IMG/VR virus record: IMGVR_UViG_3300023174_000175
Span: 1-61,782 of that record
Reading direction: 5' to 3' (one strand)
Length of the DNA: 61,782 nt
Source of the DNA: a virus
Lineage: Duplodnaviria > Caudoviricetes
A model generated the notes under the pieces. It saw nothing but the letters and a program-made list of their open reading frames with translations, was not told where the DNA came from and did not search any database. This document shows positions 256 through 55,395 of the stretch, piece by piece. The translations under genes and the position numbers were made by a program. How positions within the stretch are numbered: position 1 is the first letter of the stretch; every line of letters begins with the position of its first letter.

Positions 256-1404
256 TTAATACTCTACCACCTTAATTCCCTTGGGAACAAGGGGACTAAT
301 GTCATTAAAACTGTCTGAAGGAATGTAAATAGCCTCAACATCACTCAACTTAACACCATCATGAATTTGGGCTTCAAAATAAGAACCTTCATTGACAAAC
401 CCAATTTCATAATTATGATTATTCCAGCCCTCTTCTTCAGCAATGTTGTACAAAATTCTGTCAGACGCTCGCCACGCTTCAAAAGGAGTAATTTCTTCTT
501 GAGTCATAGAAATAGGGACACAACCAGTTGATAACGAATCGCCAACGGTCATAGTTGTCCGAGGTTTAACATCATCTTTAAACACAACCCGAACAGCCCC
601 ATACTGCTCAGGCCCATTAATCAAAACACTTTCATCTAAATTGTCTTCGGAAACATAACCATAAATAGGTCTTTTAGAAACAGGTTCCGACAATGGAATG
701 CTTTGCCCACGCAACTCACCAGCCATACGACCAATTTTGCTGTACGAACCATTGCTTGTACCTGTTTCAAATTGTGTTTTAAACCTTTGGTCATCACTTT
801 TTAATAAATTAATAAATGATTTTTCATCCATTGCCATGCAGACTTTTCCATCTGTTTGTATGGTTCTTAAATCATCAGCAATAAAACCTTGATAATCTTC
901 CTCAAAAGAATCAAAATCAGCAAAAGTAACCTGTTTAACAACTTCATCAGACACCCTGCGAAGCAATGCTTCATACATCACAACTGGATAATCTTTCCCA
1001 GTTACAAATTCAGGATTAATGACTCCTTTAAAAGTGTTATCAAAAACTCCACCAGTTTTAAGAAAAACAGCATCACGAGGATAAGCGTCTTTAACTTGTT
1101 TTTGTAACTCTTTTCCAAGAGCAGAATTAGCAAAAGTGTCACCATGAAGAATTTTAACTAAAAAATCTTCTGAGCGACTACCGCCGTATTTGCGCGCACC
1201 GCTATCTATTTTTTCGGCATAAGTTTTAGCCAATTTTTTTACAGCATTTTTAAAAGTTGTCGTTTCAGCAAAATCGTTAACTGCACCATGCGACCAATTG
1301 CCATGCGTAGATTGGTCATGTTGACCCAAATAATGTTTGGTAATTCCAGTACGCAACCAAAAAGCATTATTACCAGCATCAATGTCAATAATTAAACTCA
1401 TCAT
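256..1404 (-). CDS. Tagged protein with DUF3626-like domain
   Basis: Tag at aa 23; FKTQFETGTSNG, RPIYGY, QYG, RTTMTVGDSL and YFEAQIH motifs; paralog of 58027-59580. Confidence 0.75.
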   Translation of the reverse strand: MMSLIIDIDAGNNAFWLRTGITKHYLGQHDQSTHGNWSHGAVNDFAETTTFKNAVKKLAKTYAEKIDSGARKYGGSRSEDFLVKILHGDTFANSALGKELQKQVKDAYPRDAVFLKTGGVFDNTFKGVINPEFVTGKDYPVVMYEALLRRVSDEVVKQVTFADFDSFEEDYQGFIADDLRTIQTDGKVCMAMDEKSFINLLKSDDQRFKTQFETGTSNGSYSKIGRMAGELRGQSIPLSEPVSKRPIYGYVSEDNLDESVLINGPEQYGAVRVVFKDDVKPRTTMTVGDSLSTGCVPISMTQEEITPFEAWRASDRILYNIAEEEGWNNHNYEIGFVNEGSYFEAQIHDGVKLSDVEAIYIPSDSFNDISPLVPKGIKVVEY

Positions 1405-2507
1405 GAACCCCCAAAATTGCTCATGATTCCAACCATGGCAGAACGAGGTTGGCTAACAGAAACATTTGCTTGAACCGTACCACCAAGCAACACATGTTCA
1501 GCCTCAACTTCTGCACCCAAGCCCGTGGCATAAGTAGAAAAAACATTCTCAACAGGAACCACAATTTTAGTAAAAGCATTGCCAAAAGTTTTAGCGACAC
1601 TTGCTTTACTTGTCCAGCAACTCAAAGGTTGCATACGAATAGTTTGCTTAGAATCCGTGCCATACAAACTTTCATCAGCCACATCAAACCCACGCCATAA
1701 AGTCACCGCTTTAATACCTTTTTCAGCAAACTGTTTTTGAGTTTCTTCATACATTGCGGTAGTAATTGCTTCTAAAACTTCATAGTTTTCAGACAAAATC
1801 TTTTGAACTTGAGGAGCAATCTTTTCGGGATGACCAGTGATAAAAGAATCTTGCAACCCAAAATCTTCACGGACAACATCATTTAACGCATAGTACAAAG
1901 GGTTAGAGTTTTGTAGTTTATCCCACTGTTCCATGATTTCAACTACTGCATACTGTTTAATTAATTTTTCTTTTTCTGCCACCGTTTGAGTTTCAGGATT
2001 CATAGACCTTAAAGAAGAATTGGTTTTATCAACCCAAAGAGTGTTGTAGTAAGACTGTTTAAAAATAGCATTAGGGTCGTGGATAGCCTCCATGATTTGT
2101 TTAGCAGTAGTAAATTGTCCACTACCATCTTCAGATACATAATTTATGCCACTAGAAAAATTTGTTGGAAGAATCATTGGTGTGTTGAGAAACTCTTCAA
2201 TGGGAATGTCAGCAAGATGTTTAACCACATTGTCAGATGCAACCCATGTTGTTATGTCCTCGCTACCAAAACGACCAGCATTAGGGACTTGTGCATAAAA
2301 ATCTTGACTAGAAGGTTTAGGAGCATAAGAATAATCATTTGGTTTCAGGTTATGGTCAGCCCAAGACCCGTGTGAACTCTGGTCGTGCTGACCAGCAAGA
2401 TGTTTTGATAAAAGGGAACGCCCAAGAATTTGTTCTGCCTGTTTACGATGACGCAAAGCCTCGGCACCATCAATTTCAGACAAGAAAGAATCAGTAAACC
2501 TATCCAT
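1401..2507 (-). CDS. Tagged protein with R-S-ExE ADP-ribosyltransferase-like domain
   Basis: Tag at aa 35; LWRG...LSCWTS...AKTF...EAEHVL; paralog of 55395-56750. Confidence 0.7.
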   Translation of the reverse strand: MDRFTDSFLSEIDGAEALRHRKQAEQILGRSLLSKHLAGQHDQSSHGSWADHNLKPNDYSYAPKPSSQDFYAQVPNAGRFGSEDITTWVASDNVVKHLADIPIEEFLNTPMILPTNFSSGINYVSEDGSGQFTTAKQIMEAIHDPNAIFKQSYYNTLWVDKTNSSLRSMNPETQTVAEKEKLIKQYAVVEIMEQWDKLQNSNPLYYALNDVVREDFGLQDSFITGHPEKIAPQVQKILSENYEVLEAITTAMYEETQKQFAEKGIKAVTLWRGFDVADESLYGTDSKQTIRMQPLSCWTSKASVAKTFGNAFTKIVVPVENVFSTYATGLGAEVEAEHVLLGGTVQANVSVSQPRSAMVGIMSNFGGS

Positions 2508-4890
2508 TTTCTTGTCCCGTCACTAAAAGGTCTAACACAATCCTAGTTTTATCCAACCTTTTTGCTCCCATAACCACAAAAGTAGTATTTGGAGCAATAA
2601 CGAACTCGCCTTCTCTATCATTACCCATTGTTGCACCATGAGTACCTGCTGGCATGTGAATGTTTGAAAAAACTGTTGAAGACGCTTTAAATGAATCATT
2701 AACGCTTTGATGCACACTATTAGGGGCAGAAGTTGATGTAAAACCTTTTGCTTCAAAAGTTTTCCCAACCAAGCCATTAATGTCTTCCTCAGACATTGCA
2801 GAAACTTGTTGTCTAAAAAGACTTGCCCCTGAACTCCACCTAGTAACCGTCAAATCTTGTGTTGTTTCTGTTTCATACAACGCATTTTTCAAAGACTCAA
2901 TTTGAGCGATTCCTTGTTCTTTAGGAATTTGTTCATTGTAAATAATTCTAACTGTGTCATCAATGTTGCCACTACGAAGGTAATCATTCATCCATGAGTA
3001 CCCAAAACCAACATAATTATTTCTAGCATCCATTGTTGTTGAATCAAGTCTTGAAAGGTCTAAGGCTGGAAGGTCACTCAACGAAGCAGATTTAAAACCT
3101 TCAGCACCTGCCCAATTGCCGTGCGTAGATTGGTCATGCTGACCTTGCAAGTGTTTAGACACTGCATCAGGGTTTTGAACAATTAAAGCACCAGCATTTA
3201 AAACAACCATTTCTCGGTCAGGCAAACTTCTATCGGCTGGGTCATAAAGCATTGGACTGTCATTAATTGCGTCATAGCCCATTGCCAAAGCCATAAAATT
3301 TCTAGTTGTTAATTTGTCAGTAAAAAACCAACTTGTTGGAAAATCTGTTAAAGCCGTATGGCGAAGTAAATTAATTTGAGATTCTAGCAATCCACTATTT
3401 GCCAATACCCAGTTTGCTTCAGAAGAAGGAATAGTTAAAATTTTTGCATTAGGTTTAAAAGCCATTTTAACTATTTGTTTTTCATCACCTTTATAACCCC
3501 AAATTTCAGCCTCTTTTTGCGTATGGGCACCATAAAGACCAATGCCATTTCTACCCATAGAAATGTAAGGCAACTCCGAAGCCATAAATTGTTTAATTTT
3601 ATCTTCAGCAGATAATCTAATGTTGTCTGAAGTTTCCAAATCAAAAGCAGAACCTTGCTGAAAAGTTCGCCAAAATTCCATACCCTGTGAAGTATCACCA
3701 AAAGTAGGTTTACCAGTTTTGCCTGTGGCTTTTAAAACATCTTGCAAAGTTTTACGCCAAACATCAAGGCTGTCGTATGGTTTATTTGCGTTAATTATTG
3801 ACGCAAGTTGCTCAATACTAATTTCATTTGACCCGTCACCGTTAGCCCAATTACCGTGTGAACTCTGGTCATGTTGCCCAGCAAGGTGCTTAGAAACATT
3901 AGCCAAATTATCCCATAACGGTTGCCAAATTTCATCAAATAACTTAACGGCTTTATCGCCCGTAACTGATTTAGATTGTTTTGCTCGTTTTCTAGATTCC
4001 ATAACAATTTTATTTAAATTATTATCATCATTTTTTGAAACTTCAGAATCCGAACTCCAATACGGAGTATCTAAAACAACTAAACCCGACCTATCTAAAA
4101 TGTTAAAACATTTAGTTGAAGCACCAGCACCTTCAGGAGTTTTGGTTGTGTAAAATTGAACTCCTTGTGCTGTGGCTAAAATTCCAACATCGGTAGAACC
4201 AGCCCAAACTTTAGTTGTATCTTTTATTTCCAATAATGTGTTTTTTCTTGCTGTTTTAGTTAATGCAGACAACTTTGTTTTAGGCAAAGTTACATAATCA
4301 GGTGGAATTAACATGGCTATAACCAGCCCTCTACCCTGCCCGTCACCATTGTCATAATCATTTTTTGCATAGGCTGTTGCAAGGGCTGGATTATTGGTCA
4401 CATAAGTGCCATCACCAAAATCACCAATTCCAGCATAATAATTACCAGTTTTGAATTGTTCATAAATTTGTTCCGCAGTAGCAATTAATTTGCCATCTTC
4501 ATCATAAGAATCAGTAATTCCACGAAAAACCACTTGATAACCTTGTTTACGCAATTTAGCAAACTCATCTGCTTTAACTGTTTTAGGTTTACCAGTAAAA
4601 CCTTGTCTTTCGGCTACCATCCTCAAAATGTAATCTTGATTCATTGTGCCTACGCCATGGGCTTCATCCCATTTTTCCATAGCAGTAATTTGTTTTTGCA
4701 ATTCTAAAGAAATGTTGTAACCAAAAATTTTGTATTCTTTGTCGCCTTTTTTAAAAACATTTTTTAAATGTTCAGAAATTTCTTTAGTTATGTCTTGACC
4801 AGCACCTCCAGACCATGACCCATGTGAACTCTGGTCATGCTGACCCTGAAGGTGTTTTTGAACTGGGACAATTACATAAACAGATTTCAT
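2500..4890 (-). CDS. Three-tag polyprotein: two PARP/ART-PolyVal-like modules plus a VIP2-like ADP-ribosyltransferase
   Basis: Modules: FRG...GIGDFGDGTYVT; GRNGIGLY...GYDAI...EMVVLN; YSWMNDYLR...VTR...GFTSTS...EGEFVI. Confidence 0.75.
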   Translation of the reverse strand: MKSVYVIVPVQKHLQGQHDQSSHGSWSGGAGQDITKEISEHLKNVFKKGDKEYKIFGYNISLELQKQITAMEKWDEAHGVGTMNQDYILRMVAERQGFTGKPKTVKADEFAKLRKQGYQVVFRGITDSYDEDGKLIATAEQIYEQFKTGNYYAGIGDFGDGTYVTNNPALATAYAKNDYDNGDGQGRGLVIAMLIPPDYVTLPKTKLSALTKTARKNTLLEIKDTTKVWAGSTDVGILATAQGVQFYTTKTPEGAGASTKCFNILDRSGLVVLDTPYWSSDSEVSKNDDNNLNKIVMESRKRAKQSKSVTGDKAVKLFDEIWQPLWDNLANVSKHLAGQHDQSSHGNWANGDGSNEISIEQLASIINANKPYDSLDVWRKTLQDVLKATGKTGKPTFGDTSQGMEFWRTFQQGSAFDLETSDNIRLSAEDKIKQFMASELPYISMGRNGIGLYGAHTQKEAEIWGYKGDEKQIVKMAFKPNAKILTIPSSEANWVLANSGLLESQINLLRHTALTDFPTSWFFTDKLTTRNFMALAMGYDAINDSPMLYDPADRSLPDREMVVLNAGALIVQNPDAVSKHLQGQHDQSTHGNWAGAEGFKSASLSDLPALDLSRLDSTTMDARNNYVGFGYSWMNDYLRSGNIDDTVRIIYNEQIPKEQGIAQIESLKNALYETETTQDLTVTRWSSGASLFRQQVSAMSEEDINGLVGKTFEAKGFTSTSAPNSVHQSVNDSFKASSTVFSNIHMPAGTHGATMGNDREGEFVIAPNTTFVVMGAKRLDKTRIVLDLLVTGQENG

Positions 4891-5894
4891 GCCTGTCCCC
4901 CTAAATACCTCATTTGACCAGTTTTAATCCACTCAGCATCATTTAAACCACGGTCAGGAGGCACCAGAAACGCCGTACAGCGACAATGAGGATGAGCAGG
5001 TGGCATAAGTAGCCCATTATCAAAAGCACCGTCCCAACGCACCTGAACTCCATCTAACGGGGCACACTTATCGCAAGGAGGTCCACCAGCATTATTTTTG
5101 TAAACCGTTTGCCACTGTTTCATGGAATCACCAGCAACCCAACCGCCATCAACAGCCTGTTGCCAAGCCAACTGACGACCCATGTTTTGAGCAATCTGAA
5201 TTTCGGTACGGGCAATCATTGTGGCACGGGCACGAATTAACTTTTGGCGATACCTGTCTGTCAACAAATCCGTTTTTTCAACTGCTTTTTCAGGTTTTAA
5301 ACCCTGTTTTAATAAACTTTTATAGGTACGGTCATAAAACTTGTCAACTGCCTGTGCCCAACGAGGATGCAAACCAATAACTTGACGCAACTTTTTAGCC
5401 GTGTAAGGAACCGAAATTTCTTTACTGAAAGAATCGCTAATAATTTGACGAATTGCCAAACGCATTGAATCGTTAATGGCTGTGACCAAACGCCCAGCCT
5501 GACGCTCCGCATACAAATCCGCCACGGGGTTATGAATGTTAAAAGTGAACTCACCCTTGGGTTTACCCGTCAAAGTATTAGCGTTACCCCAATCAGGTGT
5601 TGCCTCAATTAACGGTTTTATTTCCTGACCAGCCAAAACACCAGCATTATTAATAACTGCCGTAATCGAATCCCGAATAATTTGACCAATCGCGTCAACA
5701 TTAATTGTCAACAAGGCTTGCTCCAGCAAATCGGGTTGCAGATTAATAATTGCTGAAGCCAACGCATCAGCATCAGCAACTCGCCCAGCCCGATACAAAG
5801 CATTACGAATAATGTTGTATAACTGCTCTTCAGTTACATTAAAAACTGGAGGTGCAGGTACCGAAGATTTGGCTTTCCTGACTAATGGCATCAA
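4887..5894 (-). CDS. MuF-like (SPP1 gp7 / Mu gp30) head morphogenesis protein without a C-terminal toxin
   Basis: RATMIARTE, KQW, CDKC, PPAHPHCRC; directly follows the portal gene. Confidence 0.9.
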   Translation of the reverse strand: MMPLVRKAKSSVPAPPVFNVTEEQLYNIIRNALYRAGRVADADALASAIINLQPDLLEQALLTINVDAIGQIIRDSITAVINNAGVLAGQEIKPLIEATPDWGNANTLTGKPKGEFTFNIHNPVADLYAERQAGRLVTAINDSMRLAIRQIISDSFSKEISVPYTAKKLRQVIGLHPRWAQAVDKFYDRTYKSLLKQGLKPEKAVEKTDLLTDRYRQKLIRARATMIARTEIQIAQNMGRQLAWQQAVDGGWVAGDSMKQWQTVYKNNAGGPPCDKCAPLDGVQVRWDGAFDNGLLMPPAHPHCRCTAFLVPPDRGLNDAEWIKTGQMRYLGGQA

Positions 5895-5899
5895 AACCC

Positions 5900-7351
5900 C
5901 TAGAAAGCATTATCGGATTGTCCAGCATCCTGTTTGTTAGGTGCAGGTTTTTTAGCATTTGGTTTTTGTGCAGGAGGTTGAACTGCTTGACCTTGCTGTG
6001 GCGGTTGACCTGTGGTTAAAGGCAATCCTGTAGCAGGGTCAATTGCACCCGTGGTATCACCATTATGTTCAGCAGGTGGAAGTGAACCAAGTTCACGCAA
6101 ATAATCTTCAAGATTCGGGTCAGAAACAATAATTCCAGCATTAGCCAACTTGGTCACATAATCTGCAACTTCAGTCAAATCAACATGAGCAATGTCACCA
6201 TAATTCAACTTGGGAAGACGGGAAGTGTCCATTCCATTGAAACGCATCAAACGACCAATAGCATGCTGGTTAATAACTTCTGCAATGGATTTAGCAATAG
6301 CGTCAACTGCCATTGACCACAAATCCATTTTTGCGGTACCCAAAGCAAATGACCCAACATTGTCATGACCCAACAAAATAAAATCAGATAGCACCGACAT
6401 AGCAATTCGTTGGTCATAGCGAGAAATAATTTTGTCCGTATCGAACTGACGGGAACCACCAGCCGACAAAAGGGTCAAATCAAACAGTTTTTTACCAGAT
6501 TCGTCATACTGGGCAGGAAAAACCACACCCTCTTGTTCATTGCGTTTAATGTTTTGAACAATTTCAACAATGCTATTTAGTACCGCTTTTTGTGCATCTG
6601 TAGCCGTAGATGAAAGGAACTCAGGTGGAACATAAGCGACAGGAAGACCAGCCAAATCACGCTCAATACCAATTGCTTCAATTTCTTCCATACGCTTTTT
6701 AAAGAAATAAGGACGGTAAGCGTTCCGAAGCATGGAACGACCTTCAGGATTATTTTTTTGATTTGTGGTACGGAATAATAATGCTTTTTCAATTGGGACA
6801 TAATGGGTTCCACCACCTGAAGGGTCATTTTGAATCATGCAGTTCACGCCACCATCGTCATCAAATTCCCAACGCATTAAAGAATCTTGACTACGGATAG
6901 CAAATTTACGCCAACCAATTTTGCCGTCCGTGTATTGTGAACGCTTTGTTGGGTCATTTTCGTCAGGTCCAACTCGGCGTTTGTAAACAATTTCGTGGTA
7001 TGACCAACCAAAAGTAAGCATTGAAAGAATACTTGCTAAGGTTGCGTCCCAAGAATCAGACATGTCAAAAAGGCAAGATTCAATAAAATCTGCAACTTCA
7101 ACATCTTTTTCTTTAGGGTCGCCTTCGGCATTTGGCTCAATGTAAGGGTCAACTCGCCATTCAAGGCGAACAATAACTTTCTCAATTGCGTAAAGAATGG
7201 AACCAATTACAGGGTCGTTGTCAGCCATTTCACGGTAAGCACGGATACCGTTTTTGTTTCGTAACGCTGTAATGAACTCTTCAAAGACTGTGCCACCAGC
7301 ACGATGAAGCCCTGTGGAGCCTAACTCAGAAAAATCTGGTTTTGGTGCCAT
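5900..7351 (-). CDS. Portal protein (DUF935 / Mu gp29-like)
   Basis: YREMADNDP, FGWSYHEIVY, NPEGRSMLR, GIERD, GSFALG; probable start at ATG 7351. Confidence 0.88.
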   Translation of the reverse strand: MAPKPDFSELGSTGLHRAGGTVFEEFITALRNKNGIRAYREMADNDPVIGSILYAIEKVIVRLEWRVDPYIEPNAEGDPKEKDVEVADFIESCLFDMSDSWDATLASILSMLTFGWSYHEIVYKRRVGPDENDPTKRSQYTDGKIGWRKFAIRSQDSLMRWEFDDDGGVNCMIQNDPSGGGTHYVPIEKALLFRTTNQKNNPEGRSMLRNAYRPYFFKKRMEEIEAIGIERDLAGLPVAYVPPEFLSSTATDAQKAVLNSIVEIVQNIKRNEQEGVVFPAQYDESGKKLFDLTLLSAGGSRQFDTDKIISRYDQRIAMSVLSDFILLGHDNVGSFALGTAKMDLWSMAVDAIAKSIAEVINQHAIGRLMRFNGMDTSRLPKLNYGDIAHVDLTEVADYVTKLANAGIIVSDPNLEDYLRELGSLPPAEHNGDTTGAIDPATGLPLTTGQPPQQGQAVQPPAQKPNAKKPAPNKQDAGQSDNAF

Positions 7352-7423
7352 GTTCACATCCTTACAGTAAAATAAACCTTCTTGCATAATACATTGCAAA
7401 AGGCACTATCTTGAGGTGGCTCG

Positions 7424-8059
7424 CTACTTAATGTAAAGCCATGCTTCAAAATTTAATGATTTCCAAATCAACTCACCTTGCTCAAATCCAGCATCTTCAG
7501 CCATTTGTTGATTCTTTGCAGATGTGTTGGGTCGCATTAGTTTACGCAAATCTGCGTCTTTATCCAAAATTTCCATTGCATCAAAATAAGGTCTTTTATG
7601 TTGGTGCAAAGTAGATGTCAGCATTTCTTGAATTTTGCCTGATTCTGCATAAACTTTTTCAGCCCAAATGAAAGCCCCATTTGGTCGTAGTCCATCATAA
7701 ATTCTTTTTAACAATTCTTGGCGTTTAGTGCTGTCAATGAACTGCAAAGTAAAAATTGAGGTAATTAGTGAACAGTCTTCAAATCCAAAATACTCGGTTA
7801 TGTCGTAACTAAAATACTCAACAGGGGTTGGGTTAAATCTTGGTAGCAAATTTCTTGATTTATCAATCCCAATTTTTACACCATCATGCCGAACGGTTTC
7901 CAACAATTTGCCTGTACTGCAACCAATGTCAATAAAAGTTGTATCAGGTAATAAAAAGAAATCACTTAAAGTTACTACCGTGTCAAACAAAGTATCGTAA
8001 GCAGGAATTGAACTCGCTATGTGGTCATCAAAGTTTTTGACCGTATCAAAAGAAAACAT
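7424..8059 (-). CDS. cmoA: CmoA-like carboxy-SAM synthase / SAM-dependent transferase
   Basis: FSFD..FDDHI..SIPAY, DIGCSTG, FTLQFI, AEKV and KR motifs as in CmoA. Confidence 0.75.
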   Translation of the reverse strand: MFSFDTVKNFDDHIASSIPAYDTLFDTVVTLSDFFLLPDTTFIDIGCSTGKLLETVRHDGVKIGIDKSRNLLPRFNPTPVEYFSYDITEYFGFEDCSLITSIFTLQFIDSTKRQELLKRIYDGLRPNGAFIWAEKVYAESGKIQEMLTSTLHQHKRPYFDAMEILDKDADLRKLMRPNTSAKNQQMAEDAGFEQGELIWKSLNFEAWLYIK

Positions 8060-9041
8060 TTAACCCTTTACCTATTGCTTCAACAACTGGGATTGTTATT
8101 GTTCTGCCCAATCGTTCGTATCTGACATTATCGGAAACCAATGAACCATCTTCGTAATACTTAGTGAACTCATCTGGTAAACCCTGTAGCCGTTCACATT
8201 CCAACGGGGTAAGCCTACGGATGGCTACAGTTTTGCCGTCATCAATAGCAACTCCGTGCCTATCCTGAGCCGTTAAAGTAAATGCTGATTCGTTATGTTC
8301 TTTAAACCTGCGACCATTTTGGCGTTTCTCGGCACGGTTAACTGTCAAGACGGGTTTGACGGTAACAAACGGAACATTGCCACCACCTGTTCCCATTTGG
8401 GCTAAAAGAGTTGGGGATGTTGCTCCAAAGTATCGAAATCCGTTATCTCTTCGGCTCCATTGAGCAATTCCGTTTTCTGGTTCAACTTCGACAACATTCG
8501 CTGTACCTGTTCTTCCGATAGGAAATACTTTGGGTCGGGGTTTTCCTCTAAGATTTGCGACAAGGAAAATGCGTTCTCGGTGTTGTGGGACTCCAAAGTT
8601 TTCGCTGTTAAGCAATTCCCACTGGCAGTCATACCCCATCTCATCCAAGACTCCGAGGATAACTGCGAAAGTTGTTCCATTGTCGTGGTTGAGGAGTCCT
8701 TTGACATTCTCAAAAAGGATGTACGGAATTCGCTTATCTCTGGCAAGTCGGAACATTTCAAAAGCCAAAGTACCTCTTGTGTCTTCCAAAGAGAATCCAG
8801 TTCTTTTTCCTGCAACTGAGAAAGTTGCACAAGGAAATCCTCCAACGATGAGGTCGGCATCAGGGAGGTCGCTGGCGGAAATAGTCCGAACATCTCTTCC
8901 ATCTGGTTGTTCGCCAAATTGTCGTTCATAAATCCTCCGTGGTGCTTTTTCCCATTCGTTTGCCCATACACAAGTATGACCAGTGCGTTCCAGCCCTAGC
9001 CGAAACGCACCGATACCTGCAAAAAGTTCAATAAATTTCAT
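8046..9041 (-). CDS. DNA cytosine-C5 methyltransferase-family enzyme (motif X GN changed to GR; candidate carboxymethyltransferase)
   Basis: LFAGIG, GGFPC, ENVKG, QHRERIF, RRLTPLECERLQG, RYERLGRT. Confidence 0.92.
   Translation of the reverse strand: MKFIELFAGIGAFRLGLERTGHTCVWANEWEKAPRRIYERQFGEQPDGRDVRTISASDLPDADLIVGGFPCATFSVAGKRTGFSLEDTRGTLAFEMFRLARDKRIPYILFENVKGLLNHDNGTTFAVILGVLDEMGYDCQWELLNSENFGVPQHRERIFLVANLRGKPRPKVFPIGRTGTANVVEVEPENGIAQWSRRDNGFRYFGATSPTLLAQMGTGGGNVPFVTVKPVLTVNRAEKRQNGRRFKEHNESAFTLTAQDRHGVAIDDGKTVAIRRLTPLECERLQGLPDEFTKYYEDGSLVSDNVRYERLGRTITIPVVEAIGKGLNVFF
8402..8971 (-). CDS. Nested alternative-frame ORF inside the C5-MTase (resembles the beta subunit of split MTases)
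   Basis: 189-aa open frame ending SLSQILEENPDPKYFLS; true start uncertain. Confidence 0.5.
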   Translation of the reverse strand: MYGQTNGKKHHGGFMNDNLANNQMEEMFGLFPPATSLMPTSSLEDFLVQLSQLQEKELDSLWKTQEVLWLLKCSDLPEISEFRTSFLRMSKDSSTTTMEQLSQLSSESWMRWGMTASGNCLTAKTLESHNTENAFSLSQILEENPDPKYFLSEEQVQRMLSKLNQKTELLNGAEEITDFDTLEQHPQLF

Positions 9042-9217: not shown

Positions 9218-9345
9218 TATTTTTGTCCTGCCTTATGATTTTTGCGTTCCATCTCAATAAGTGAAACGGCTTCTTCCATGGTTATTAAATCTTCTTGTTG
9301 AGATTTAATAATGTCTATGATTAATTGAATTAATTTTGAACTCAA
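9217..9345 (-). CDS. Hypothetical protein (42 aa, TTG start)
   Basis: AGGAAGGAC RBS upstream; TAATG coupling to the next gene. Confidence 0.5.
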   Translation of the reverse strand: MSSKLIQLIIDIIKSQQEDLITMEEAVSLIEMERKNHKAGQK

Positions 9346-46870: not shown

Positions 46871-46883
46871 TAGTTAACTCCTC

Positions 46884-47276: not shown

Positions 47277-47282
47277 GGTTAA

Positions 47283-48050: not shown

Positions 48051-48153
48051 AACATCCTCTGTTCTGAACATGCAGAATTAACTGCAAATCTTGACTTGCT
48101 CAAAATTAACACAAATCAATTACACTGAGGGTTTGACTTTGGGCGTGTCGGAT

Positions 48154-48348
48154 TTAACGACTTTGATAAAAACCAGTAGATGAACCGTGTTTGGAAACTT
48201 TGGTTGCACCCGTAATTACTCTTTTGGTTGAACCATTACCAATACGCAAATTCAAAGTAGTTTGATTAGTTACACCAGTAACAATCGCATGATAAACACG
48301 ACCAGATTCACGATAACGAACTGAAGTACCAACTTTAAAAACTTGCAT
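48154..48348 (-). CDS. Hypothetical basic protein
   Basis: TAATG coupling to dps. Confidence 0.6.
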   Translation of the reverse strand: MQVFKVGTSVRYRESGRVYHAIVTGVTNQTTLNLRIGNGSTKRVITGATKVSKHGSSTGFYQSR

Positions 48349-48845
48349 TACATCCCCAAACTAGAACGAAGTTGCCAATCCCATTTTTTGTGCATGTCAA
48401 TGCGTTCAGCAAGAAAATTAGCCACACCCTGCTCATTAGACGAGTTTGCAGAAGTGAAAGCCATGTTTAATGTATTAATAAGTTGAAGGTTTGCCTTCTG
48501 CAAATCTGATGCCATGGAACGGGGGTCATCAGCAGAACCAATGGTGGTTTCTGGCAGGGTTCGGTAAGCAATAAAATCTGACAACTTAAATGGTGCATCA
48601 ACGCCAAGTTTCAACATGTTTTCAGCCATTGGGTCAATTGAACTGTAAACATCTTCATAGATAGATTCAAAAAGTTCGTGGTATTGAGCAAAATCCGAAC
48701 CTTTAACATTCCAATGAAAGCCATGGGCACGAGTGTAAAAAGTGACAACATCAGCCAAGGCTGTACGCAATAACGAGGCAACATCGCCAACGGCTTTATT
48801 TATTGCTCCAAAAGGAACATAATCACTATCGTTAGTCAGAAACAT
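48348..48845 (-). CDS. dps: Dps/ferritin-like protein
   Basis: HGFHWNVKG..F...HELF..IY...D..AE; H.K..WQL. Confidence 0.93.
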   Translation of the reverse strand: MFLTNDSDYVPFGAINKAVGDVASLLRTALADVVTFYTRAHGFHWNVKGSDFAQYHELFESIYEDVYSSIDPMAENMLKLGVDAPFKLSDFIAYRTLPETTIGSADDPRSMASDLQKANLQLINTLNMAFTSANSSNEQGVANFLAERIDMHKKWDWQLRSSLGM

Positions 48846-49635
48846 CTTCGTCAGAAACCTTTACATCTTTTTTGGGCTTCTTCTTTTGCCCACCCATAAC
48901 AGTATCCACATGAACAGTGTTCACTGTAGGACCCGACACGGTAGATGAACTGTCTTCTTTAGCAACTGGCAAATCAACCTCAAGACGCTGGGCACGACCA
49001 CCAATCGAATAACCCATCAACTTTCCAGCCTTAACCATTTCCCAAGCCCATGGTTCCCAAACAACGCCAAGAAAAACAGTGTCCTTGGGGAAAGTAACAT
49101 CTTCCATAGTTCCATCAGATTTTTGCATAGGAACTGAAACTTCGTAAGGCCATGCCATGACCTCAACCCATTCACCAGCAACAACATCTTTATTGTGCTG
49201 AAGTCGGATACGGCGGTCATCTTTACGCACATAATCCCAAACCGATTTCTGCAACTCAGCAGAATCCGTCCACTCACCATGAGCATCAACACGGTCAGGA
49301 ACATACATTGGACCTAGGGTGTATCGGTTTTCACTAACAGCCTTGGAAACCAATGACATTTGCGGAGTTTCATCAATAGAGAATTGGTCATAAAAACCTT
49401 TACCGTTATGAGCCAATGATGAAGCCTCAAAAATGTCTATTTCGCCATCTTCAAAAGTTTCCCACTCATTTACAGGAGCAATCATTTGTCCTTCTTCAAA
49501 GTTTTTATTAAAATCTTGAGAAATTTCTTCATAGGCTTGTTTGAACTCAGCCGTATCTGGTAATCCTGCTTGAGCCAATGTGTTACCGTAAGCAACAGCA
49601 TTAGTAATGACATTTAATTGCTGAACTGTAATCAT
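48832..49635 (-). CDS. XkdF-like prohead serine protease
   Basis: YVPDRVDAHGE, LQH, W..VK.GKLMGYSIGG. Confidence 0.85.
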   Translation of the reverse strand: MITVQQLNVITNAVAYGNTLAQAGLPDTAEFKQAYEEISQDFNKNFEEGQMIAPVNEWETFEDGEIDIFEASSLAHNGKGFYDQFSIDETPQMSLVSKAVSENRYTLGPMYVPDRVDAHGEWTDSAELQKSVWDYVRKDDRRIRLQHNKDVVAGEWVEVMAWPYEVSVPMQKSDGTMEDVTFPKDTVFLGVVWEPWAWEMVKAGKLMGYSIGGRAQRLEVDLPVAKEDSSSTVSGPTVNTVHVDTVMGGQKKKPKKDVKVSDEDVSD

Positions 49636-51716
49636 TATGCATGTCCCTTCTCAATAAAATTATCCCACATACCTTGATTAAACACAACTTTGGGAGTGTT
49701 TTTACCGCCTTGTGCAATTACAGTAGCGTTAAAACCTTCAGTGCTAACCAATTTCCATTCATCAAAAGCGTTTGCTTCAAAAGCCAAAGGAGCCGTAAGA
49801 CTAACACCTTTATGAATTTTACGGATGACACTATGGGGAACATAACGGCGTTCAGTTTTAGCCCTGTTATTAGAACGCCGAATTGCTTCACTAACAGAAA
49901 CTGTCGCGTAAAAGGCTTTAACAACATAACCCTTTTGCCGAGCAGTATCAATCTTGCCAAGAAGATTTTCAAATTTGCCATTGCCCGTACTGTCATAAAC
50001 AATGTCTGCTCTTTTAGCCAAACCTGCTTTTTCAATTGCCTTAGCCAACATGGAAGATTCTTCATGAGTGTGAGTGCCAGCACCCTTAAAATCAGCCATA
50101 GAGGTGCTGGTAGACATTCTTTTCATTTCGGGAATCATAGTTTTAACCATGTCAGCATTAACCTGAACAGCATCACCGCTAGAAATAAAAGCATCCGTAG
50201 CAGGGTCAGTGATTGGTTGTGGAACTCCCACTTTACCTTTACGAATCATTGTGGTTTTACCTGAAGCAGGTCCACCACCAATTAGATAATAAGTGGGATT
50301 TTTTTGACTCTTAGTTCCATCAACAAAAGTATGCACAATTTCCTCATGAAGTTTTAATCTTTCAGGAGTAAAAACATACTTTAATTGCCCATTGGTAGTT
50401 GTGTAATTAGGGTTAGGCATCAAATGATGCCAAGCAGAATCGCTAGGAGTAATTGATTCAGAACCACCCCACTCTTTCCCAGTGATTGCTTCAGGAATAC
50501 CGTACTTGTAGCCACCAGTTGCTTCAGGAGTAGAAGTGCCACGCTTAACACCACCATAATTACCGCCACCCTCAGCAGTGTCACGATAAATTTTATTAGA
50601 ACCTGCTTCTGGAGCATGCAAACCTTCACCAGCAGGTGATTTAGCCCATGACCCGTGAGTTGACTGGTCATGCTGACCAGCAAGGTGTTTCAATAACGGA
50701 ATAGTGCTTAATTGAGGAATAGGGTCAACTAACAAACGGCGGTATCTGCGTTTACTACCATTTAAAGCATCAAAAAATCCTGCATCCGTAACAATTTGGT
50801 CAGCATAAACACCATTAGTTAGTGAATCAGAACCTTTACGAAAATTATCCAACAAACCATGTAATTCTTCATGCCGTTTCATAACAGCAGGAATGGCAAA
50901 AGGATTTGAATTAGTGCGTTTCAACTCACGACCAGAATCGTAACCATCATTGTAGGACAAACGAACAGTTTTTTTGCTCAAAATTTTAGTGATTGCTTGA
51001 AAATCCGAACCACTAACAGAAGAGCCGTGTGCCCAATCCCCGTGAGTTGACTGGTCATGTTTGCCCTGCATGTGTTTAGACATGCCATTTAATAAATTTT
51101 CAGGAATTATCCAAAACTTGCATAAAGCACAATGGTCAATTTGCCCCTCAACAATTTCACAACCTTGACCACCTTCATAAAATACACAATTTGCACACAT
51201 TAAACCTTCAGACATGAAAGGATTTTCTTCCATGTAATGTGCCCCGTTAGCACCGCAACCTTTATTGAACTTACCAACGGTTTCGGTTAAAGATTCCAAA
51301 AATTCATAAATTGCAGATTGGGTTTCATTTAGTGCATCTTCAGGTTCAGGGTCATTCATGTTCATTGGGGCATCTTTAGCCACCGTATCGAATTTTAAAG
51401 TGTAACCATCAACAGTCAAAATAGTGGTTTTAGAAACAGATTCAGGATAACCCAACTCAACATTGACCGTATCAACCACATCAGAAGGGATGCCATCAAA
51501 CGCTTTATTTACAGGAACATTGTTTTCAACGCCAACTTCAATAACAGCACGATTCCACTCATCGCCTTTATGTCCATGGTCTAAACCACGAACCAGCAAC
51601 TCCGTTGTGACAAGATGGTGGGCTTGAACTTTTACAGGGTCAGCAACATCAGCATGCAAAGACTTATGTAACACTTCCAAATCAGCATTACTTAAATTAG
51701 TTAAATCAAATGACAT
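49635..51716 (-). CDS. Two-tag polyprotein: HiPIP-like Cys domain, short module, zeta-toxin/AAA_33 kinase
   Basis: CANCVFY..C..V.G.I..CALCKFW; GGGPASGKTT, VNAD..K, HEESS, YDST. Confidence 0.8.
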   Translation of the reverse strand: MSFDLTNLSNADLEVLHKSLHADVADPVKVQAHHLVTTELLVRGLDHGHKGDEWNRAVIEVGVENNVPVNKAFDGIPSDVVDTVNVELGYPESVSKTTILTVDGYTLKFDTVAKDAPMNMNDPEPEDALNETQSAIYEFLESLTETVGKFNKGCGANGAHYMEENPFMSEGLMCANCVFYEGGQGCEIVEGQIDHCALCKFWIIPENLLNGMSKHMQGKHDQSTHGDWAHGSSVSGSDFQAITKILSKKTVRLSYNDGYDSGRELKRTNSNPFAIPAVMKRHEELHGLLDNFRKGSDSLTNGVYADQIVTDAGFFDALNGSKRRYRRLLVDPIPQLSTIPLLKHLAGQHDQSTHGSWAKSPAGEGLHAPEAGSNKIYRDTAEGGGNYGGVKRGTSTPEATGGYKYGIPEAITGKEWGGSESITPSDSAWHHLMPNPNYTTTNGQLKYVFTPERLKLHEEIVHTFVDGTKSQKNPTYYLIGGGPASGKTTMIRKGKVGVPQPITDPATDAFISSGDAVQVNADMVKTMIPEMKRMSTSTSMADFKGAGTHTHEESSMLAKAIEKAGLAKRADIVYDSTGNGKFENLLGKIDTARQKGYVVKAFYATVSVSEAIRRSNNRAKTERRYVPHSVIRKIHKGVSLTAPLAFEANAFDEWKLVSTEGFNATVIAQGGKNTPKVVFNQGMWDNFIEKGHA

Positions 51717-51753
51717 TTGAACTCCTTCCCGACAGAATAGCAAACAAAATTAA

Positions 51754-51858
51754 CTATTCAGGTTTTGTCGGCTCAAGCAATTCTCTCGGTTTCATTCGTT
51801 CAGGAATACAATCAGGGTCAATAGGGTCAATGTTTTCAACTATTAAATAATCATCCAT
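51754..51858 (-). CDS. 34-aa peptide following the HEIAH module
   Basis: MDDYLIVENIDPIDPDCIPER...; overlaps the upstream stop. Confidence 0.45.
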   Translation of the reverse strand: MDDYLIVENIDPIDPDCIPERMKPRELLEPTKPE

Positions 51859-54553
51859 TTAAAACACCTTCTTGTACATAGAAATTACGCAAACTAGCAC
51901 CCAACTCGGAACCCCAATAATGGTCAGCAAGCGTAACCAAATTTTCCGCAAACTCAACACCGTGGGCCGCATGAGGATTTTCTTCACTAATAGCCGTGGC
52001 ATAATGAGCAATTTCATGCAAAAGAGTACTTTCGCTAAAACTGTAATGTGAATCTATTTTGAACTCGCTTGTGGTTTTTTCGCGACCAGTAGTGCGATTA
52101 ATAATCACGCCATAGGCATAAGACCCAGATAAAGTCATTGAATTGTTAGTTTTAATTTCTAAAGTACTTCTTAACTGATTTCCACTACCAAAAGTTTCAA
52201 CAAACCAAGGGTCATCAATAACAGTCGTAATGTACTTTTTAATTCCAGACAAAGTGCCATTTAAATTTTTTGCACCCAAGTCAGAAACAATAAATTTATG
52301 TGACTCTCTAGCCCAAACAGTGTGGGCTTTTCTGTAATCTTTAAACGCTCTTACATAATCATCTCGTGATTCAAAATCACTGCTTTTTGGTGCTTGTGGT
52401 TGATTTTTTCGCATTTCTTCGTAATGGTCTTTACCCATTACGCTTTCTTTAAACAAGGCTTCAGCACCATAAATTTTATTTTGCAAAGGGTCGTGTTTTT
52501 GTTTTCGTAAATCCAGCATTTCTCTGGTCGTCAAACTGTGACCACCTTTAACAGCATTTAAATGCGTACCGTGTGCCCAATTGCCATGACTGGACTGGTC
52601 ATGCTGACCTAAAAAATGTTTAAAAAAATCAGAATCAACAGGAACCTGAACAATTACTGAGGCTTCGGCAACTTCCCGTAAATTTTTTCCGCCCAATCCA
52701 TAATTTCCTCGTCCGTCATCTGATTCAATGGTTTCGGGGATGAGGCTATGTTTATGACTTCCTTTTTCGACTGTTCCACCAGTACCTCCTGTTTGAATCT
52801 CATCAAAGTTTACAACATCCCAAATACTAATTTGGTTACGCCTTCTACCCAACGAAATTGCTTGCTTCTTACTAACAACTTTGTCCGTAACATCCAAATG
52901 AACTTGTTGCTGTTCTTTTGGTATTTCAACCGTTACACCATTAATTGTTTTTGTTGTTTCATGCCACACACCAAGATAGGCACGACCAGAACCCAACTCT
53001 GATTTGTTCTTAATCAAGAACGCACCAAGAATTTTGGCTCCTTTTTTCTCGTTAAAAAAATCTGATGCCGTGACTACAGTGCCAAACTTGTCACTGTTTC
53101 GAGATACCATGTAGCCATCTGGAGGCAGTGAGCCGTCTGTTAACTTGATTGATAAACCACCGTTTTCGGCTACTTGCGACAGCACATCATGAACAACTTC
53201 TGGTGCAACATGGCTGTTGAACCTGCGTCCGTGAGTTGATTGGTCGTGTTGACCTTGAAGGTGTTTCTCAACCTCGGTTGATTTAATCTTAGCCCGTAAA
53301 ATAGCAATGTCAAACCGCAAAGCCTTAGAAAACGCACTATTTTTATTATTCTCACCCAATGCAATTGGGGCAACGCCAACTACATCATTCCAAGCAAGAA
53401 CCACATCAATTAATTCTTTAGCAGGAACATTTACCCGAATAACAGGCATTTTCACAGAACTGTCACGCAAACTCATGGACAAAATAGCGGCCCACCTATG
53501 ATGACCGTCAATTACATAATTATCGCTAGACACAATAATTCTAGATTTGTCGTCATCTTTAATGCCTTTTTCTTCCAATGACAACATAATTTGAGCAGAT
53601 TTTGAAGCAGAAATTTCCGATTGAATTGGGTGCAACGCTTGTGGGCTTAAATCAACTCGTTTGTAAGAAATTCCCTCTTTGTCCATCTCAGCAAGAAATT
53701 CATTTTTTAAACCAGAGGGAACTTGTGGCATTTTATCCCTAGGAATGCCCATGTTGTCGCCCGTGTAAAAATGCGTTCCAACAATTTCAAGGTTAGTTAA
53801 ATCAGGATTATCTTGGCGTTTAGCCATTTGCTCCATAAAGAAATGAACATCTAATGGACTAATTTTACCTTGTTTGCCAGCAACTACATTATCAATTGCA
53901 TCGGCAACTGGGTATTGATAATCAGATTTTGTTCCACTATGCCCAGCCCAATTTCCATGTGTAGATTGGTCGTGTTGTCCTGCAAGGTGCTTTTGAACTG
54001 ATTGCGGATAATAAGACCATTCGTACAAAGAATTACCGTCAGTGTAAATTTCATTGGCATGAACTGTGGTGTGCAAAATGTCGTAATCACCAAAACGAGC
54101 AGTTACACTACTTTCGCCATGTAATTTGGCGTATTCTTCGGAAATAGTAACCCAATCACCAGCATTAACTTTAGTAACGCCTTTGGGTACAGCACGATAA
54201 ATGGTCACATGAGCATCGGGTTTATTACGAATACTTACAAGCAAATCATGGATTTTTTTATCTTCAGCCCTATTGTTGCCACCGTGCCCATAAATTCTGG
54301 CACCATCAGAATCATAAACATTTTTTGGATAAATGTTTCCATTTCCAGTTAAATCGTATGCAGGGGCACCATCTTCGGGTTCTGGAGGACGGTGACTCAT
54401 TTGATAATCAGTTTCACTGTTAGCACCGCCATGTGCCCAATCGCCGTGTGAACTCTGGTCATGCTGACCTTGCAAATGTTTTTCAACTTTCACACCATGT
54501 TTAACACCCAAATCGGGGTAAACCACATCAAAAGTTACATCATCTAAAATCAT
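51851..54553 (-). CDS. Four-tag polyprotein: ART-like?, ParB/Srx-like, unknown, HExxH peptidase
   Basis: IYRAVP..GDWVT..E; IVSSDNYVIDGHHRW; YLGVW..NQISIWD; LLHEIAH..HGVEF. Confidence 0.8.
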   Translation of the reverse strand: MILDDVTFDVVYPDLGVKHGVKVEKHLQGQHDQSSHGDWAHGGANSETDYQMSHRPPEPEDGAPAYDLTGNGNIYPKNVYDSDGARIYGHGGNNRAEDKKIHDLLVSIRNKPDAHVTIYRAVPKGVTKVNAGDWVTISEEYAKLHGESSVTARFGDYDILHTTVHANEIYTDGNSLYEWSYYPQSVQKHLAGQHDQSTHGNWAGHSGTKSDYQYPVADAIDNVVAGKQGKISPLDVHFFMEQMAKRQDNPDLTNLEIVGTHFYTGDNMGIPRDKMPQVPSGLKNEFLAEMDKEGISYKRVDLSPQALHPIQSEISASKSAQIMLSLEEKGIKDDDKSRIIVSSDNYVIDGHHRWAAILSMSLRDSSVKMPVIRVNVPAKELIDVVLAWNDVVGVAPIALGENNKNSAFSKALRFDIAILRAKIKSTEVEKHLQGQHDQSTHGRRFNSHVAPEVVHDVLSQVAENGGLSIKLTDGSLPPDGYMVSRNSDKFGTVVTASDFFNEKKGAKILGAFLIKNKSELGSGRAYLGVWHETTKTINGVTVEIPKEQQQVHLDVTDKVVSKKQAISLGRRRNQISIWDVVNFDEIQTGGTGGTVEKGSHKHSLIPETIESDDGRGNYGLGGKNLREVAEASVIVQVPVDSDFFKHFLGQHDQSSHGNWAHGTHLNAVKGGHSLTTREMLDLRKQKHDPLQNKIYGAEALFKESVMGKDHYEEMRKNQPQAPKSSDFESRDDYVRAFKDYRKAHTVWARESHKFIVSDLGAKNLNGTLSGIKKYITTVIDDPWFVETFGSGNQLRSTLEIKTNNSMTLSGSYAYGVIINRTTGREKTTSEFKIDSHYSFSESTLLHEIAHYATAISEENPHAAHGVEFAENLVTLADHYWGSELGASLRNFYVQEGVLNG

Positions 54554-55395
54554 GAAAATACCCCATTGCCATCAGTTTTGTAAGAAAACAAATCCAAAAC
54601 ATTAGCCTGTTTATCTAAGCCCTCATTGCGTAACAAGTATTTCCAAGTTTCCAAAAATGGTAAATTATGACCGCCATCCCCTGCATTGCCTTCCACCCAA
54701 TTGCCTTCAAGAATGTGGGAAATTTCATGCAACAAAACAAATTGGCTAACACCTTTAGGTTTGTAAATTAAAACAGGAAGAGTTGCATTGTGTAAAGGAT
54801 GATTTTCGTCTGCAACATTGCCACGAGTGACTCCAGCCTCAATACCATCAACTAAATAATGACCGTCTTCATCTGGCCACAATTGGTAAACTCTGTCACC
54901 ATAACCGTATTTGGCAAATACTTCATCAACATAAGTTGCAATGTCTTTTCGATTGGTAAAAATGCGTCCTTGTCCAACTGCTTGTAAAGGTGCCGAATCA
55001 AGGCATAAACCTGAAGCAAACTCAATTTGTTTATCATCAGGGGCACCTGTTGGAACAACATCGCTCCAATCCGTACCATCTTTCCAAGGTATTGCCACAC
55101 CAGTCAAATTATTTGGTTTATGAACAACGCCACCATTTTTAGCCCAATTACCATGTGAACTCTGGTCGTGCTGTCCTGTCAAATGTTTAGACAAATCAAA
55201 TTGCAAATAACTATTTACAGCAATTTTTAATGATTCTGGCATACTTCTAAATGCTGGTAAATGCTGAAAATTTTCCCAATTACCACCTATTGCAATAAGA
55301 AATGCTTTTGGCTCAAGTGGCAAATCCCAACTTGCACTTTTAATCCAATCAGAATTAATTAATGAATCATCAACATTTATTTTTAATTTTTTCAT
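54550..55395 (-). CDS. Tagged HExxH (SprT-like) metallopeptidase
   Basis: Tag then VLLHEISH...GHNLPF; probable start at 55395 (TAATG). Confidence 0.75.
   Translation of the reverse strand: MKKLKINVDDSLINSDWIKSASWDLPLEPKAFLIAIGGNWENFQHLPAFRSMPESLKIAVNSYLQFDLSKHLTGQHDQSSHGNWAKNGGVVHKPNNLTGVAIPWKDGTDWSDVVPTGAPDDKQIEFASGLCLDSAPLQAVGQGRIFTNRKDIATYVDEVFAKYGYGDRVYQLWPDEDGHYLVDGIEAGVTRGNVADENHPLHNATLPVLIYKPKGVSQFVLLHEISHILEGNWVEGNAGDGGHNLPFLETWKYLLRNEGLDKQANVLDLFSYKTDGNGVFS

Follow-up and report, generated by a model that had tools for sequence, protein, structure and literature searches.

In the MuF polymorphic toxins of temperate phages, a short open reading frame (ORF) lying just behind the toxin is regarded as the immunity gene for it (Jamet et al. 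2017, PMC5576092); the CDI (contact-dependent growth inhibition) and Rhs polymorphic toxin cassettes swap a toxin together with a family-specific downstream partner at a short conserved motif (Zhang et al. 2012, PMC3482391); and the polyvalent proteins of phages and conjugative elements are considered to undergo processing and injection (Iyer et al. 2017, PMC5512222). Here we analysed IMGVR_UViG_3300023174_000175, a Caudoviricetes record of IMG/VR taken over its full length of 61,782 bases (the window in what follows), whose head module holds ten cargo genes, g1 to g10, between the gene for a MuF-like minor head protein and that for the prohead protease. Comparison with related genomes showed the block from MuF to the prohead protease to be organised as an array of shuffled cargo cassettes, each made up of a 16-residue tag, one effector domain and a trailing peptide, hereafter the trailer.

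The array resembles each of these three systems in some respects. It shares with the MuF toxins (PMC5576092) the site in the head module beside portal and MuF and the variable, toxin-type domains (ADP-ribosyltransferases, ARTs, and RelA/SpoT-like domains in relatives), and in one relative (L119; L numbers denote the other contigs) MuF is fused directly to the first tag. It differs in effector number, with as many as 18 in a genome against a single C-terminal toxin, in that the tag, not a fusion to MuF, opens each effector, and in that the downstream piece mostly has no gene of its own, being a leader fusion, a protease fusion or an in-frame tail. As in CDI and Rhs cassettes (PMC3482391), a short conserved motif serves as the joint at which toxin and family-specific downstream partner are swapped; here, however, that motif is a capsid-cargo tag, probably with a protease site, rather than a secretion pre-toxin motif, the cassettes stand in tandem and are all expressed, and many partners, whose immunity role is putative, are far shorter (18-40 residues). 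Polyvalent proteins (PMC5512222) likewise string unrelated conflict enzymes (ARTs, zincin-like peptidases, zeta-type kinases) in head-associated proteins, but the passages of that paper on cleavage, linkers, processing and conserved motifs describe neither a repeated tag nor effector-specific trailers, and the array is split over ten coupled genes. Full-text literature searches, supplements not covered, found no paper containing the tag letters and no description of effector-specific trailing peptides.

The tag, KH[LMYF]xGxHDQS[ST]HGxW[AS], summarised as KHLxGQHDQSxHGxWA, occurs 18 times in g1 to g10, and each copy begins an effector domain; it is conserved at the protein level, with synonymous sites scrambled. 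Pfam domains behind the tags comprise an exoenzyme-type ART (ADPrib_exo_Tox), a DRAT-like ART, two DUF3626 domains, a GNAT-like domain, two ATLF-like HExxH peptidases, a weak SprT-like match and a zeta toxin. DUF3626 we take to be the SopF family, presumably with the ART activity of SopF. Several unrelated conflict-type enzyme domains lie in head-associated polypeptides, with two to four domains each in g1, g4, g9 and g10. The DNA pattern of the tag matched 104 stretches in IMG/VR contigs, and the whole cargo modules of ten contigs were compared with that of the window. Dividing these eleven modules from one tag to the next yielded 128 tagged units (18 in the window, 110 elsewhere), whose bodies fell into 31 families by BLASTP clustering (F numbers) and varied in order among genomes.

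Linkage across these modules ran in one direction. Nine families of leaders, the N-terminal segments ahead of a gene's first tag, are informative in that they occur before two or more effector families (34 leaders): behind each there is a single upstream family, ahead of it there are two to four. A further two leader families open new translation units behind gaps, without a tie to any effector. Identity profiles of the DNA, anchored on the tag (54 junction pairs each way, four closest genomes), gave the same picture. Where the upstream family was the same and the downstream one different, mean identity went from 51-63% ahead of the tag to 72-76% inside it and down to about 30% beyond; with different upstream and the same downstream family it was about 28%, 70-85% and 60-68%, respectively, and in single junction pairs identity dropped from 90-100% to about 30%. 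The joints therefore lie in the 48-nucleotide (nt) tag, somewhat to its 5′ side, which makes tag-effector-trailer the unit. With joints placed in the tag, at its 5′ edge or, where the array ends, at the ..VSK junction of the prohead protease, all that lies between two of them is inherited together, whatever the gene boundaries. Variable toxin-type domains are thus swapped by recombination at the conserved element that precedes them, this element being the tag and not a trafficking domain, and a partner-like piece is encoded immediately downstream of the effector and inherited with it. A role of the leader as pro-peptide of the downstream effector was ruled out by the upstream-only linkage and the identity profiles.

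A first-pass annotation, made from the window alone, had proposed the tag-effector-peptide unit, rather than the gene, as the cassette, with each effector family followed by its own peptide. The covariation of effector family and downstream peptide that it predicted was indeed found in related genomes, where the cassette boundaries held as well, so that its general statement is strongly confirmed at the level of sequence comparison.

The specificity was measured on a dereplicated set of 52 representative cassettes (<60% body identity). Same-family trailer pairs reached a mean score of 26.8 (151 pairs) vs. 13.9 for different-family pairs (1175 pairs), and 68 of the 151 exceeded the 95th percentile of the latter. 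In 38 of 46 cases, with 5.9 expected, the nearest trailer belonged to an effector of the same family, and none of 5000 label permutations attained the observed mean. Family specificity persisted down to 30-40% enzyme identity. Trailer ratios of nonsynonymous to synonymous substitution rates (dN/dS) were mostly 0.06-0.5, like those of the enzymes, with dS often saturated. Trailers are hence shown, by these comparisons, to be specific to an effector family or subfamily and to evolve under purifying selection.

The features of the locus, listed in transcription order as portal, MuF, g1 to g10, XkdF-type prohead protease, are as follows; scaffold and major capsid protein come next in the head module.

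5900-7399, minus strand: portal (Pfam Portal_Mu, E 3e-39).
4887-5894, minus strand: MuF-like minor head protein (Pfam Phage_Mu_F, E 1.9e-9); the cargo block begins directly 3′ of its gene.
4890 through the circular junction to 49635, minus strand: cargo genes g1 to g10, between MuF and prohead protease.
4858-4890, minus strand: g1 leader MKSVYVIVPVQ, generic, after MuF, its ATG overlapping the MuF stop; the tag at 4857-4810 follows.
2500-4890, minus strand: g1, three cassettes in one frame, tags 4857-4810, 3891-3844 and 3156-3109.
3892-4809, 3157-3843 and 2503-3108, minus strand: g1 bodies F06, F08 and F01, the last an exoenzyme-type ART (ADPrib_exo_Tox, E 9e-12).
2406-2507, minus strand: F01 ART trailer, the g2 leader (MDRFTDSF.., 34 residues), its start overlapping the g1 stop by 8 nt.
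1401-2405, minus strand: g2, tag 2405-2358, DRAT-like ART body F10 at 1404-2357 (Pfam DRAT, E 2.9e-6).
1339-1404 (start at 1404 or 1401), minus strand: g2 ART trailer, the g3 leader (..IDIDAGNNAFWLR..).
256-1338, minus strand: g3, tag 1338-1291, DUF3626/SopF-like body F00-A at 259-1290 (Pfam DUF3626, E 5e-4, below the cut-off).
68-253, minus strand: F00-A trailer, the g4 leader of 62 residues, a predicted small beta-rich folded domain.
59587-61782, with its start at 253 across the circular junction, minus strand: g4, tags 67-20 (equal to 61698-61651), 61191-61144 and 60387-60340.
61192-61650, 60388-61143 and 59590-60339, minus strand: g4 bodies, GNAT-like, HEWGH peptidase 1 and HEWGH peptidase 2.
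About 60388-60468, minus strand: in-frame trailer of HEWGH peptidase 1 (TMGSSILIADTFSKTPPPSFIELPDVS), an internal linker of g4, conserved in L117.
59473-59580, minus strand: HEWGH peptidase 2 trailer, the g5 leader (MLQSPP..IGCTFGLDKP..IFVVPPLSLV).
58027-59472, minus strand: g5, tag 59472-59425, DUF3626/SopF-like body F00-B at 58030-59424.
57842-58015, minus strand: F00-B trailer, the g6 leader of 58 residues (..FGGSWSW..GDALQWW..).
56789-57841, minus strand: g6, tag 57841-57794, F18 body.
56661-56750, minus strand: g7 leader (..SRIARLAKFIGVVESSDVVLI), the generic leader of a fresh translation unit, tied to no effector.
55395-56660, minus strand: g7, tag 56660-56613, ART body F10 at 55398-56612.
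55189-55395, minus strand: g7 ART trailer, the g8 leader of 69 residues (..INVDDSLINSDWIKSASWDLP..; INVDDSLINSDWIK at about 55380-55339).
54550-55188, minus strand: g8, tag 55188-55141, HEISH peptidase-like body F07 at 54553-55140.
54482-54553, minus strand: F07 trailer, the g9 leader (MILDDVTFDVVYPDLGVKHGVKVE).
51851-54481, minus strand: g9, four cassettes in one frame, tags 54481-54434, 53992-53945, 53266-53219 and 52621-52574; bodies F11, F03 (ParB-like, weak), F02 and F04 (HEIAH, weakly SprT-like).
51754-51858, minus strand: F04 trailer, a tagless free ORF of 34 residues (MDDYLIVENIDPIDPD.., peptide LIVENIDPIDPD), its ATG overlapping the g9 stop.
49635-51743, minus strand: g10, an N-terminal domain of ~220 residues, tags 51077-51030 and 50690-50643, bodies F12 and zeta toxin (49638-50642).
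48832-49635, minus strand: prohead protease, XkdF-type.
49342-49635, minus strand: its N-terminal extension of 98 residues, ending ..MSLVSK, which acts as trailer of the zeta-toxin cassette.
48832-49341, minus strand: its catalytic part, XkdF-like (Pfam Peptidase_S78_2, E 4e-12, residues 94-219).

Individual trailers illustrate the linkage. The MDRFTDSF leader lay behind the F01 body in all five genomes and ahead of four different effector families, and identity to distant copies was 70-85% for this trailer vs. 61-64% for its body. The g3-type leader recurred behind an F10 ART in L111, there leading an HEWGH peptidase, and a 64-residue homologue of the g8 leader followed an F10 ART in L119, ahead of another effector (43% identity vs. 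35% for the body). The g4 leader stood behind the 344-residue DUF3626 enzyme in four of four cases, ahead of four different families, and was again better conserved than the enzyme (43-47% vs. 35-38%); in L113, L114 and L116 this F00-A trailer is a free 58-residue ORF, in other genomes a tagged leader. The g6 type followed F00-B in four of four cases, three times as tagged leader before three different families and once as a free 61-residue ORF (L111). The F07 trailer (MILDDVTF..) occurred behind F07 in six of six genomes and ahead of three different families, with DNA identity breaking after the tag; a Pfam search with the F07 body of g8 gave no match. F04 is followed in eight of eight genomes by a small ORF that overlaps it and bears the motif h-h-h-E-h-x-[DE]-P (seven free, one tag-fused), and the scores of all 15 F04 trailer pairs, 24-93, exceed the 95th percentile for different-family pairs, which is 20. 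Generic leaders followed another pattern: eight of the ten related modules have the g1 type at the start of their first cargo gene, and the g7 type comes after gaps of 38-288 nt, behind three upstream and ahead of four downstream families.

The first-pass annotation had rested its case on likeness between peptides behind paralogous effectors within the window. All peptides that it named are present on the minus strand where it placed them, and BLASTP upheld the paralogy of the g2 and g7 ARTs (E 1e-13), the g3 and g5 DUF3626 domains (E 2.5e-19) and the two HEWGH peptidases (E 3e-12); the two domains called SprT-like were not significantly alike (E 0.96), only the HEIxH stretch matching. Inside the window, the likeness of the peptides themselves was marginal. 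The four pairs fell at fractions 0.047, 0.135, 0.094 and 0.047 of the 1175 different-family pairs from eleven genomes, and shuffling gave p values that depended on how the peptides were delimited (ART 0.05-0.14, DUF3626 0.03-0.74, HEWGH 0.06-0.38, SprT 0.17-0.42), so that the window alone offers weak evidence for the trailing-peptide finding. Across genomes, two pairings gained ground: the two ART leader types gave a Smith-Waterman score of 28 (top 0.2% of 802 different-family pairs) and the HEWGH trailers one of 26 (top 1%), making remote homology probable in both cases. The other two did not. SprT trailers scored 17-21 (fractions 0.05-0.2) and DUF3626 trailers 12-21, though each DUF3626 enzyme has its own well-conserved trailer; the proposed KVGNW/KFGGSW match sets the C-terminal end of one small domain against the N-terminal end of another, unrelated one, and is not an alignment. 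These figures also bear on the idea that the noted likenesses are random matches between short peptides, for which speak the standing of the window pairs in the top 5-14% of background, shuffle p values of 0.25-0.74 under some delimitations, the pair without an alignment and the failure of the SprT pair to reach significance across families. Against it stand the 5000 permutations and the nearest-neighbour counts given above. As an account of the whole, chance is very improbable; it holds solely for the SprT and DUF3626 pairings as pairs, and is refuted for the general claim by the cross-genome comparison.

Trailers extend to the next tag, are 14-98 residues long and take four forms: they can be an in-frame tail, the leader of the next gene, begun by a start codon that overlaps, a small ORF standing free, or an extension at the N-terminus of the protease. 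Of the 128 units, 55 continue in frame to the next tag, 71 are terminated by a stop and two run off the DNA. Behind 70 of the 71 stops, an ORF starts at -20 to +15 nt from the stop end (56 of these starts overlapping the upstream gene). In 46 cases this ORF runs on into the next tag and in 7, at module ends, into the protease gene; the other 17 are free small ORFs, 14-77 residues in length. Among the 64 stop-terminated units that are not at a module end, 17 have free ORFs, 46 are fused to the next tag and one has none. The free ORFs measure 23-77 residues, with one truncated to 14; F13 trailers are free ORFs of 77 residues. Fusion by programmed frameshift was considered and discarded: the offsets vary and fall in all three frames, so no single frameshift mechanism fits. 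The overlapping starts rather suggest termination-reinitiation.

Depending on the genome, the same trailer may be in frame or separate, as for F05 (L115 and L112 vs. the window) and F06 (the window vs. L113-L117); the g5-leader peptide, for instance, recurs as an in-frame internal linker in L115 and L112. Such cases would fit a split enzyme, in which the trailer is a C-terminal element of the upstream enzyme fold that is parted from it by stop and restart and re-associates. Several points speak against it. For HEWGH peptidase 1, roughly 77 of 104 homologues stop matching at query residue 216-219 of 252, often where the homologue itself ends, with 35 residues of trailer remaining beyond, which places the trailer outside the enzyme fold; the Pfam ART match in g1 reaches within 23 residues of the stop; and bacterial SopF-like domains end at the point equivalent to the phage enzyme end, after which a separate ORF follows. 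We therefore regard a split enzyme as quite unlikely.

The bacterial relatives come from metagenome-assembled genome or isolate contigs (L121-L126), which encode tagless proteins of 330-884 residues with a C-terminal SopF/DUF3626-like domain. An ORF of 83-138 residues lies directly behind this domain in five of five assessable loci, likely representing, by analogy, a toxin-immunity layout for this ART family. Homology of these ORFs to the small phage domain was tried and rejected (hhalign probability 0.7%; no hmmsearch match among 348 ORFs). The phage domain itself, the 62-residue F00-A trailer, was predicted by AlphaFold2 as a small beta-rich fold with a mean predicted local distance difference test score (pLDDT) of 87.6 and a predicted template modelling score (pTM) of 0.73, and all seven larger proteins found to hold it carry it as N-terminal leader. 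A comparison of trailer and enzyme charges gave no sign of complementarity, both being acidic; F04 is the exception, with basic-leaning bodies and very acidic trailers.

Behind the last cassette of the array, the initial 82-98 residues of the prohead protease act like a trailer. One type of extension (A) follows the zeta toxin (five genomes) and an unrelated one (B) a RelA/SpoT-like effector (two genomes), with the catalytic domain after ..VSK nearly identical in all genomes compared. L116 combines a catalytic domain of the L114/L117 clade with an extension of the zeta type, and the DNA joint between them is sharp and lies about 15 nt ahead of the VSK codons; the inferred switch of extensions rests on this one informative case. 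The zeta domain of g10 (Pfam Zeta_toxin, E 7.5e-19), followed by a segment of ~90 residues that co-varies with toxin type, calls to mind the zeta-epsilon type II toxin-antitoxin system, except that here the toxin comes first, the segment is fused to the protease and it has no sequence likeness to epsilon or any PDB chain; a PDB sequence search with the type-A extension gave nothing below E 0.08.

HK97-type proteases cut after Lys (P1 = Lys). In 119 of 128 tags, V, L, M, F or I stands two positions ahead of the tag Lys, a pattern similar to the ..VSK junction of the protease. From this pattern, that junction and the specificity of HK97-type enzymes, we infer that the prohead protease may cut between K and H of hydrophobic-x-K-H, and ..MSLVSK/A.. 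(49342-49350, the slash marking the cut) is a candidate self-cleavage site. The first-pass annotation had also seen hydrophobic-x-K often flanking internal peptides on both sides; upstream flanks of this kind were not enriched, with 8 in the window vs. 7.0 expected (p 0.39) and 62 in all genomes vs. 58.2 (p 0.29). In phage T4, the internal proteins and Alt carry a capsid-targeting sequence that is cut by the gp21 prohead protease, and the packaged and injected enzymes include an ART. The array shares with T4 a short N-terminal signal on capsid-packaged enzymes, its removal by the head protease being putative here; signal and protease family are different, and the T4 signal is generic, without a segment of the preceding gene.

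In another reading, the trailer is simply a processing spacer, i.e. a P-side pro-region needed by the head protease ahead of the tag, which neither binds nor regulates the upstream effector, the linkage to it arising from the joints alone. It would account for joints in the tag, for the hydrophobic residue before the tag Lys, for the predicted disorder of the HEWGH tail, for generic leaders (MKSVYVVVPV, SRIARLAKF) filling the same position without an upstream effector and for the sometimes unequal divergence of trailer and enzyme. A mere spacer would, however, be expected to lose family specificity at 30-40% enzyme identity, would hardly be kept as a tagless free ORF (seven of eight F04 trailers, three F00-A domains, the 77-residue F13 ORFs) and would not yield a confidently folded 62-residue domain more conserved than its enzyme. 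Taken together, we consider this reading somewhat doubtful.

An inhibitor or immunity role, as already proposed by the first-pass annotation, appears to be the most likely single function of the trailers, and is put forward tentatively. The trailer would be the cognate partner of the preceding enzyme, keeping it quiet in the producing cell, and the array would correspond, among phage cargo, to the toxin-plus-immunity cassettes of polymorphic toxins; inside the capsid, cleavage at hydrophobic-x-K-H would release the trailer from the effector that follows. This reading is favoured because of purifying selection, the free small ORFs, the folded 62-residue domain, the toxin-matched protease extensions and the precedent of polymorphic toxins. 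In a more specific version, which we regard as possible though not probable, the array forms a daisy chain: each toxic cargo enzyme would be neutralised in the producing cell by the N-terminal leader of the next cargo protein, and the last one by the protease leader, until cleavage in the capsid. Overlapping start codons would couple production of the toxin to that of its antidote, and the capsid protease would separate each antidote from the protein to which it is fused; since recombination joints would coincide with these putative cut sites, phages would trade complete toxin-antidote units between arrays.

Several observations weigh against an inhibitor role. Joints in the tag would give linkage without any function, and a lytic phage late in infection may need no immunity. 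In some pairs the trailer is much closer than the enzyme (81% vs. 45% identity, dS 0.63 vs. 1.88), synonymous sites included, and joints must therefore also occur between enzyme and trailer. About ten families always continue straight into the next tag, and g6 is the sole stop-terminated cassette without a trailing ORF (38-nt gap). Many trailers have merely 18-24 residues, which is short for an immunity protein, and in an AlphaFold2 model of HEWGH peptidase 1 with its 32-residue in-frame tail the domain was confident, the tail (pLDDT 43-50) undocked, few alignment rows covering it. Six trailers and the four protease extensions had no match in Pfam, hence none to a known immunity family, the 62-residue domain found no clear structural relative (Foldseek best E 0.34, VIA wide best Z 4.1), and its likeness to the bacterial small ORFs, with homology rejected on sequence grounds, would be positional alone.

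The trailer might alternatively escort its effector, as a specific chaperone or adaptor for solubility, prohead loading or ejection competence. Such a role shares with inhibition the evidence from linkage, selection and free ORFs, and by its fusion to the tagged protein behind it a trailer would link neighbouring cargo proteins to each other. Every effector already has its own tag, though, which makes additional tethering seem unnecessary, and neither Pfam searches with six trailers nor fold searches with the 62-residue domain revealed similarity to known chaperone families. We consider an escort function unlikely. Inhibition or immunity, in turn, draws its plausibility from the analogy with polymorphic toxins and stands as a good hypothesis that can be tested, rather than as a result.

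Further observations concern tags and leaders. A generic motif, [ST]V[FY]V[VF]PP[LV] or SVYVIVPV, lies directly 5′ of some tags (window 4858-4890, 59473-59510 and 52622-52660; leaders of L113, L114, L116 and L117); it follows MuF in nearly every module, also forms the C-terminal end of trailers of several effector families and may be an optional extension of the tag. In L114 (5203-5406) and L117 (7813-8016), a compound leader of 68 residues consists of an F01-type trailer, an SVYVVPPL motif and an ..ALGRSLGI.. stretch that recalls the end of the MDRFTDSF trailer; to judge from this composition, it looks like the relic of a deleted cassette. One gene of L112 (7489-8475) carries a degenerate tag copy (KHLQGQHNQSTHGSWA, D to N) before an extra HExxH peptidase, missed by the strict pattern. 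In L119 (1-12501), the in-frame fusion of MuF to the first tag makes a MuF-tag-effector polyprotein, and L118 (1-7001) has five variant tags (GAKHLPGQHDQS.HGR) within one long frame; the tag system therefore covers split and fused architectures. Each of the seven related modules that extend this far has the N-terminal ~220 residues of g10 (51078-51716, CxxC...CxxC) conserved, always before a tag; they form a constant component, in contrast to the shuffled cassettes.

Nearly all genes of the record lie on the minus strand. Its ends, 1-151 and 61632-61782, repeat each other over 151 nt with three mismatches, so that the genome is circular or terminally redundant, of ~61.6 kb. One mismatch pair alters two residues of the g4 leader (..TSTVGLF.. 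vs. ..TSKIGLF..). The mismatched repeat points to a circular assembly drawn from a slightly mixed population; in IMG/VR the record is classed as linear. Two methyltransferase-like ORFs close upstream of the portal gene (7424-9041) were recognised by eye from their translations, one with cytosine-5 DNA methyltransferase-like motifs and one apparently S-adenosylmethionine-dependent.

Two differences from bacterial polymorphic toxins stand out: the presumed partner is stitched to the neighbouring protein, and recombination joints lie at a peptide tag and not at gene borders. If this reading is right, phages arrange their injected enzymes by the toxin-plus-partner cassette logic of those toxins, and gene-based annotation and gene-sharing networks would misplace the evolutionary units in such phages. 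Short leaders and free ORFs of 23-77 residues should not be dismissed as noise: the leaders are candidate specific inhibitors for effectors of the ART, peptidase, zeta and alarmone-synthetase types, and the tag is a candidate portable signal for loading proteins into capsids.

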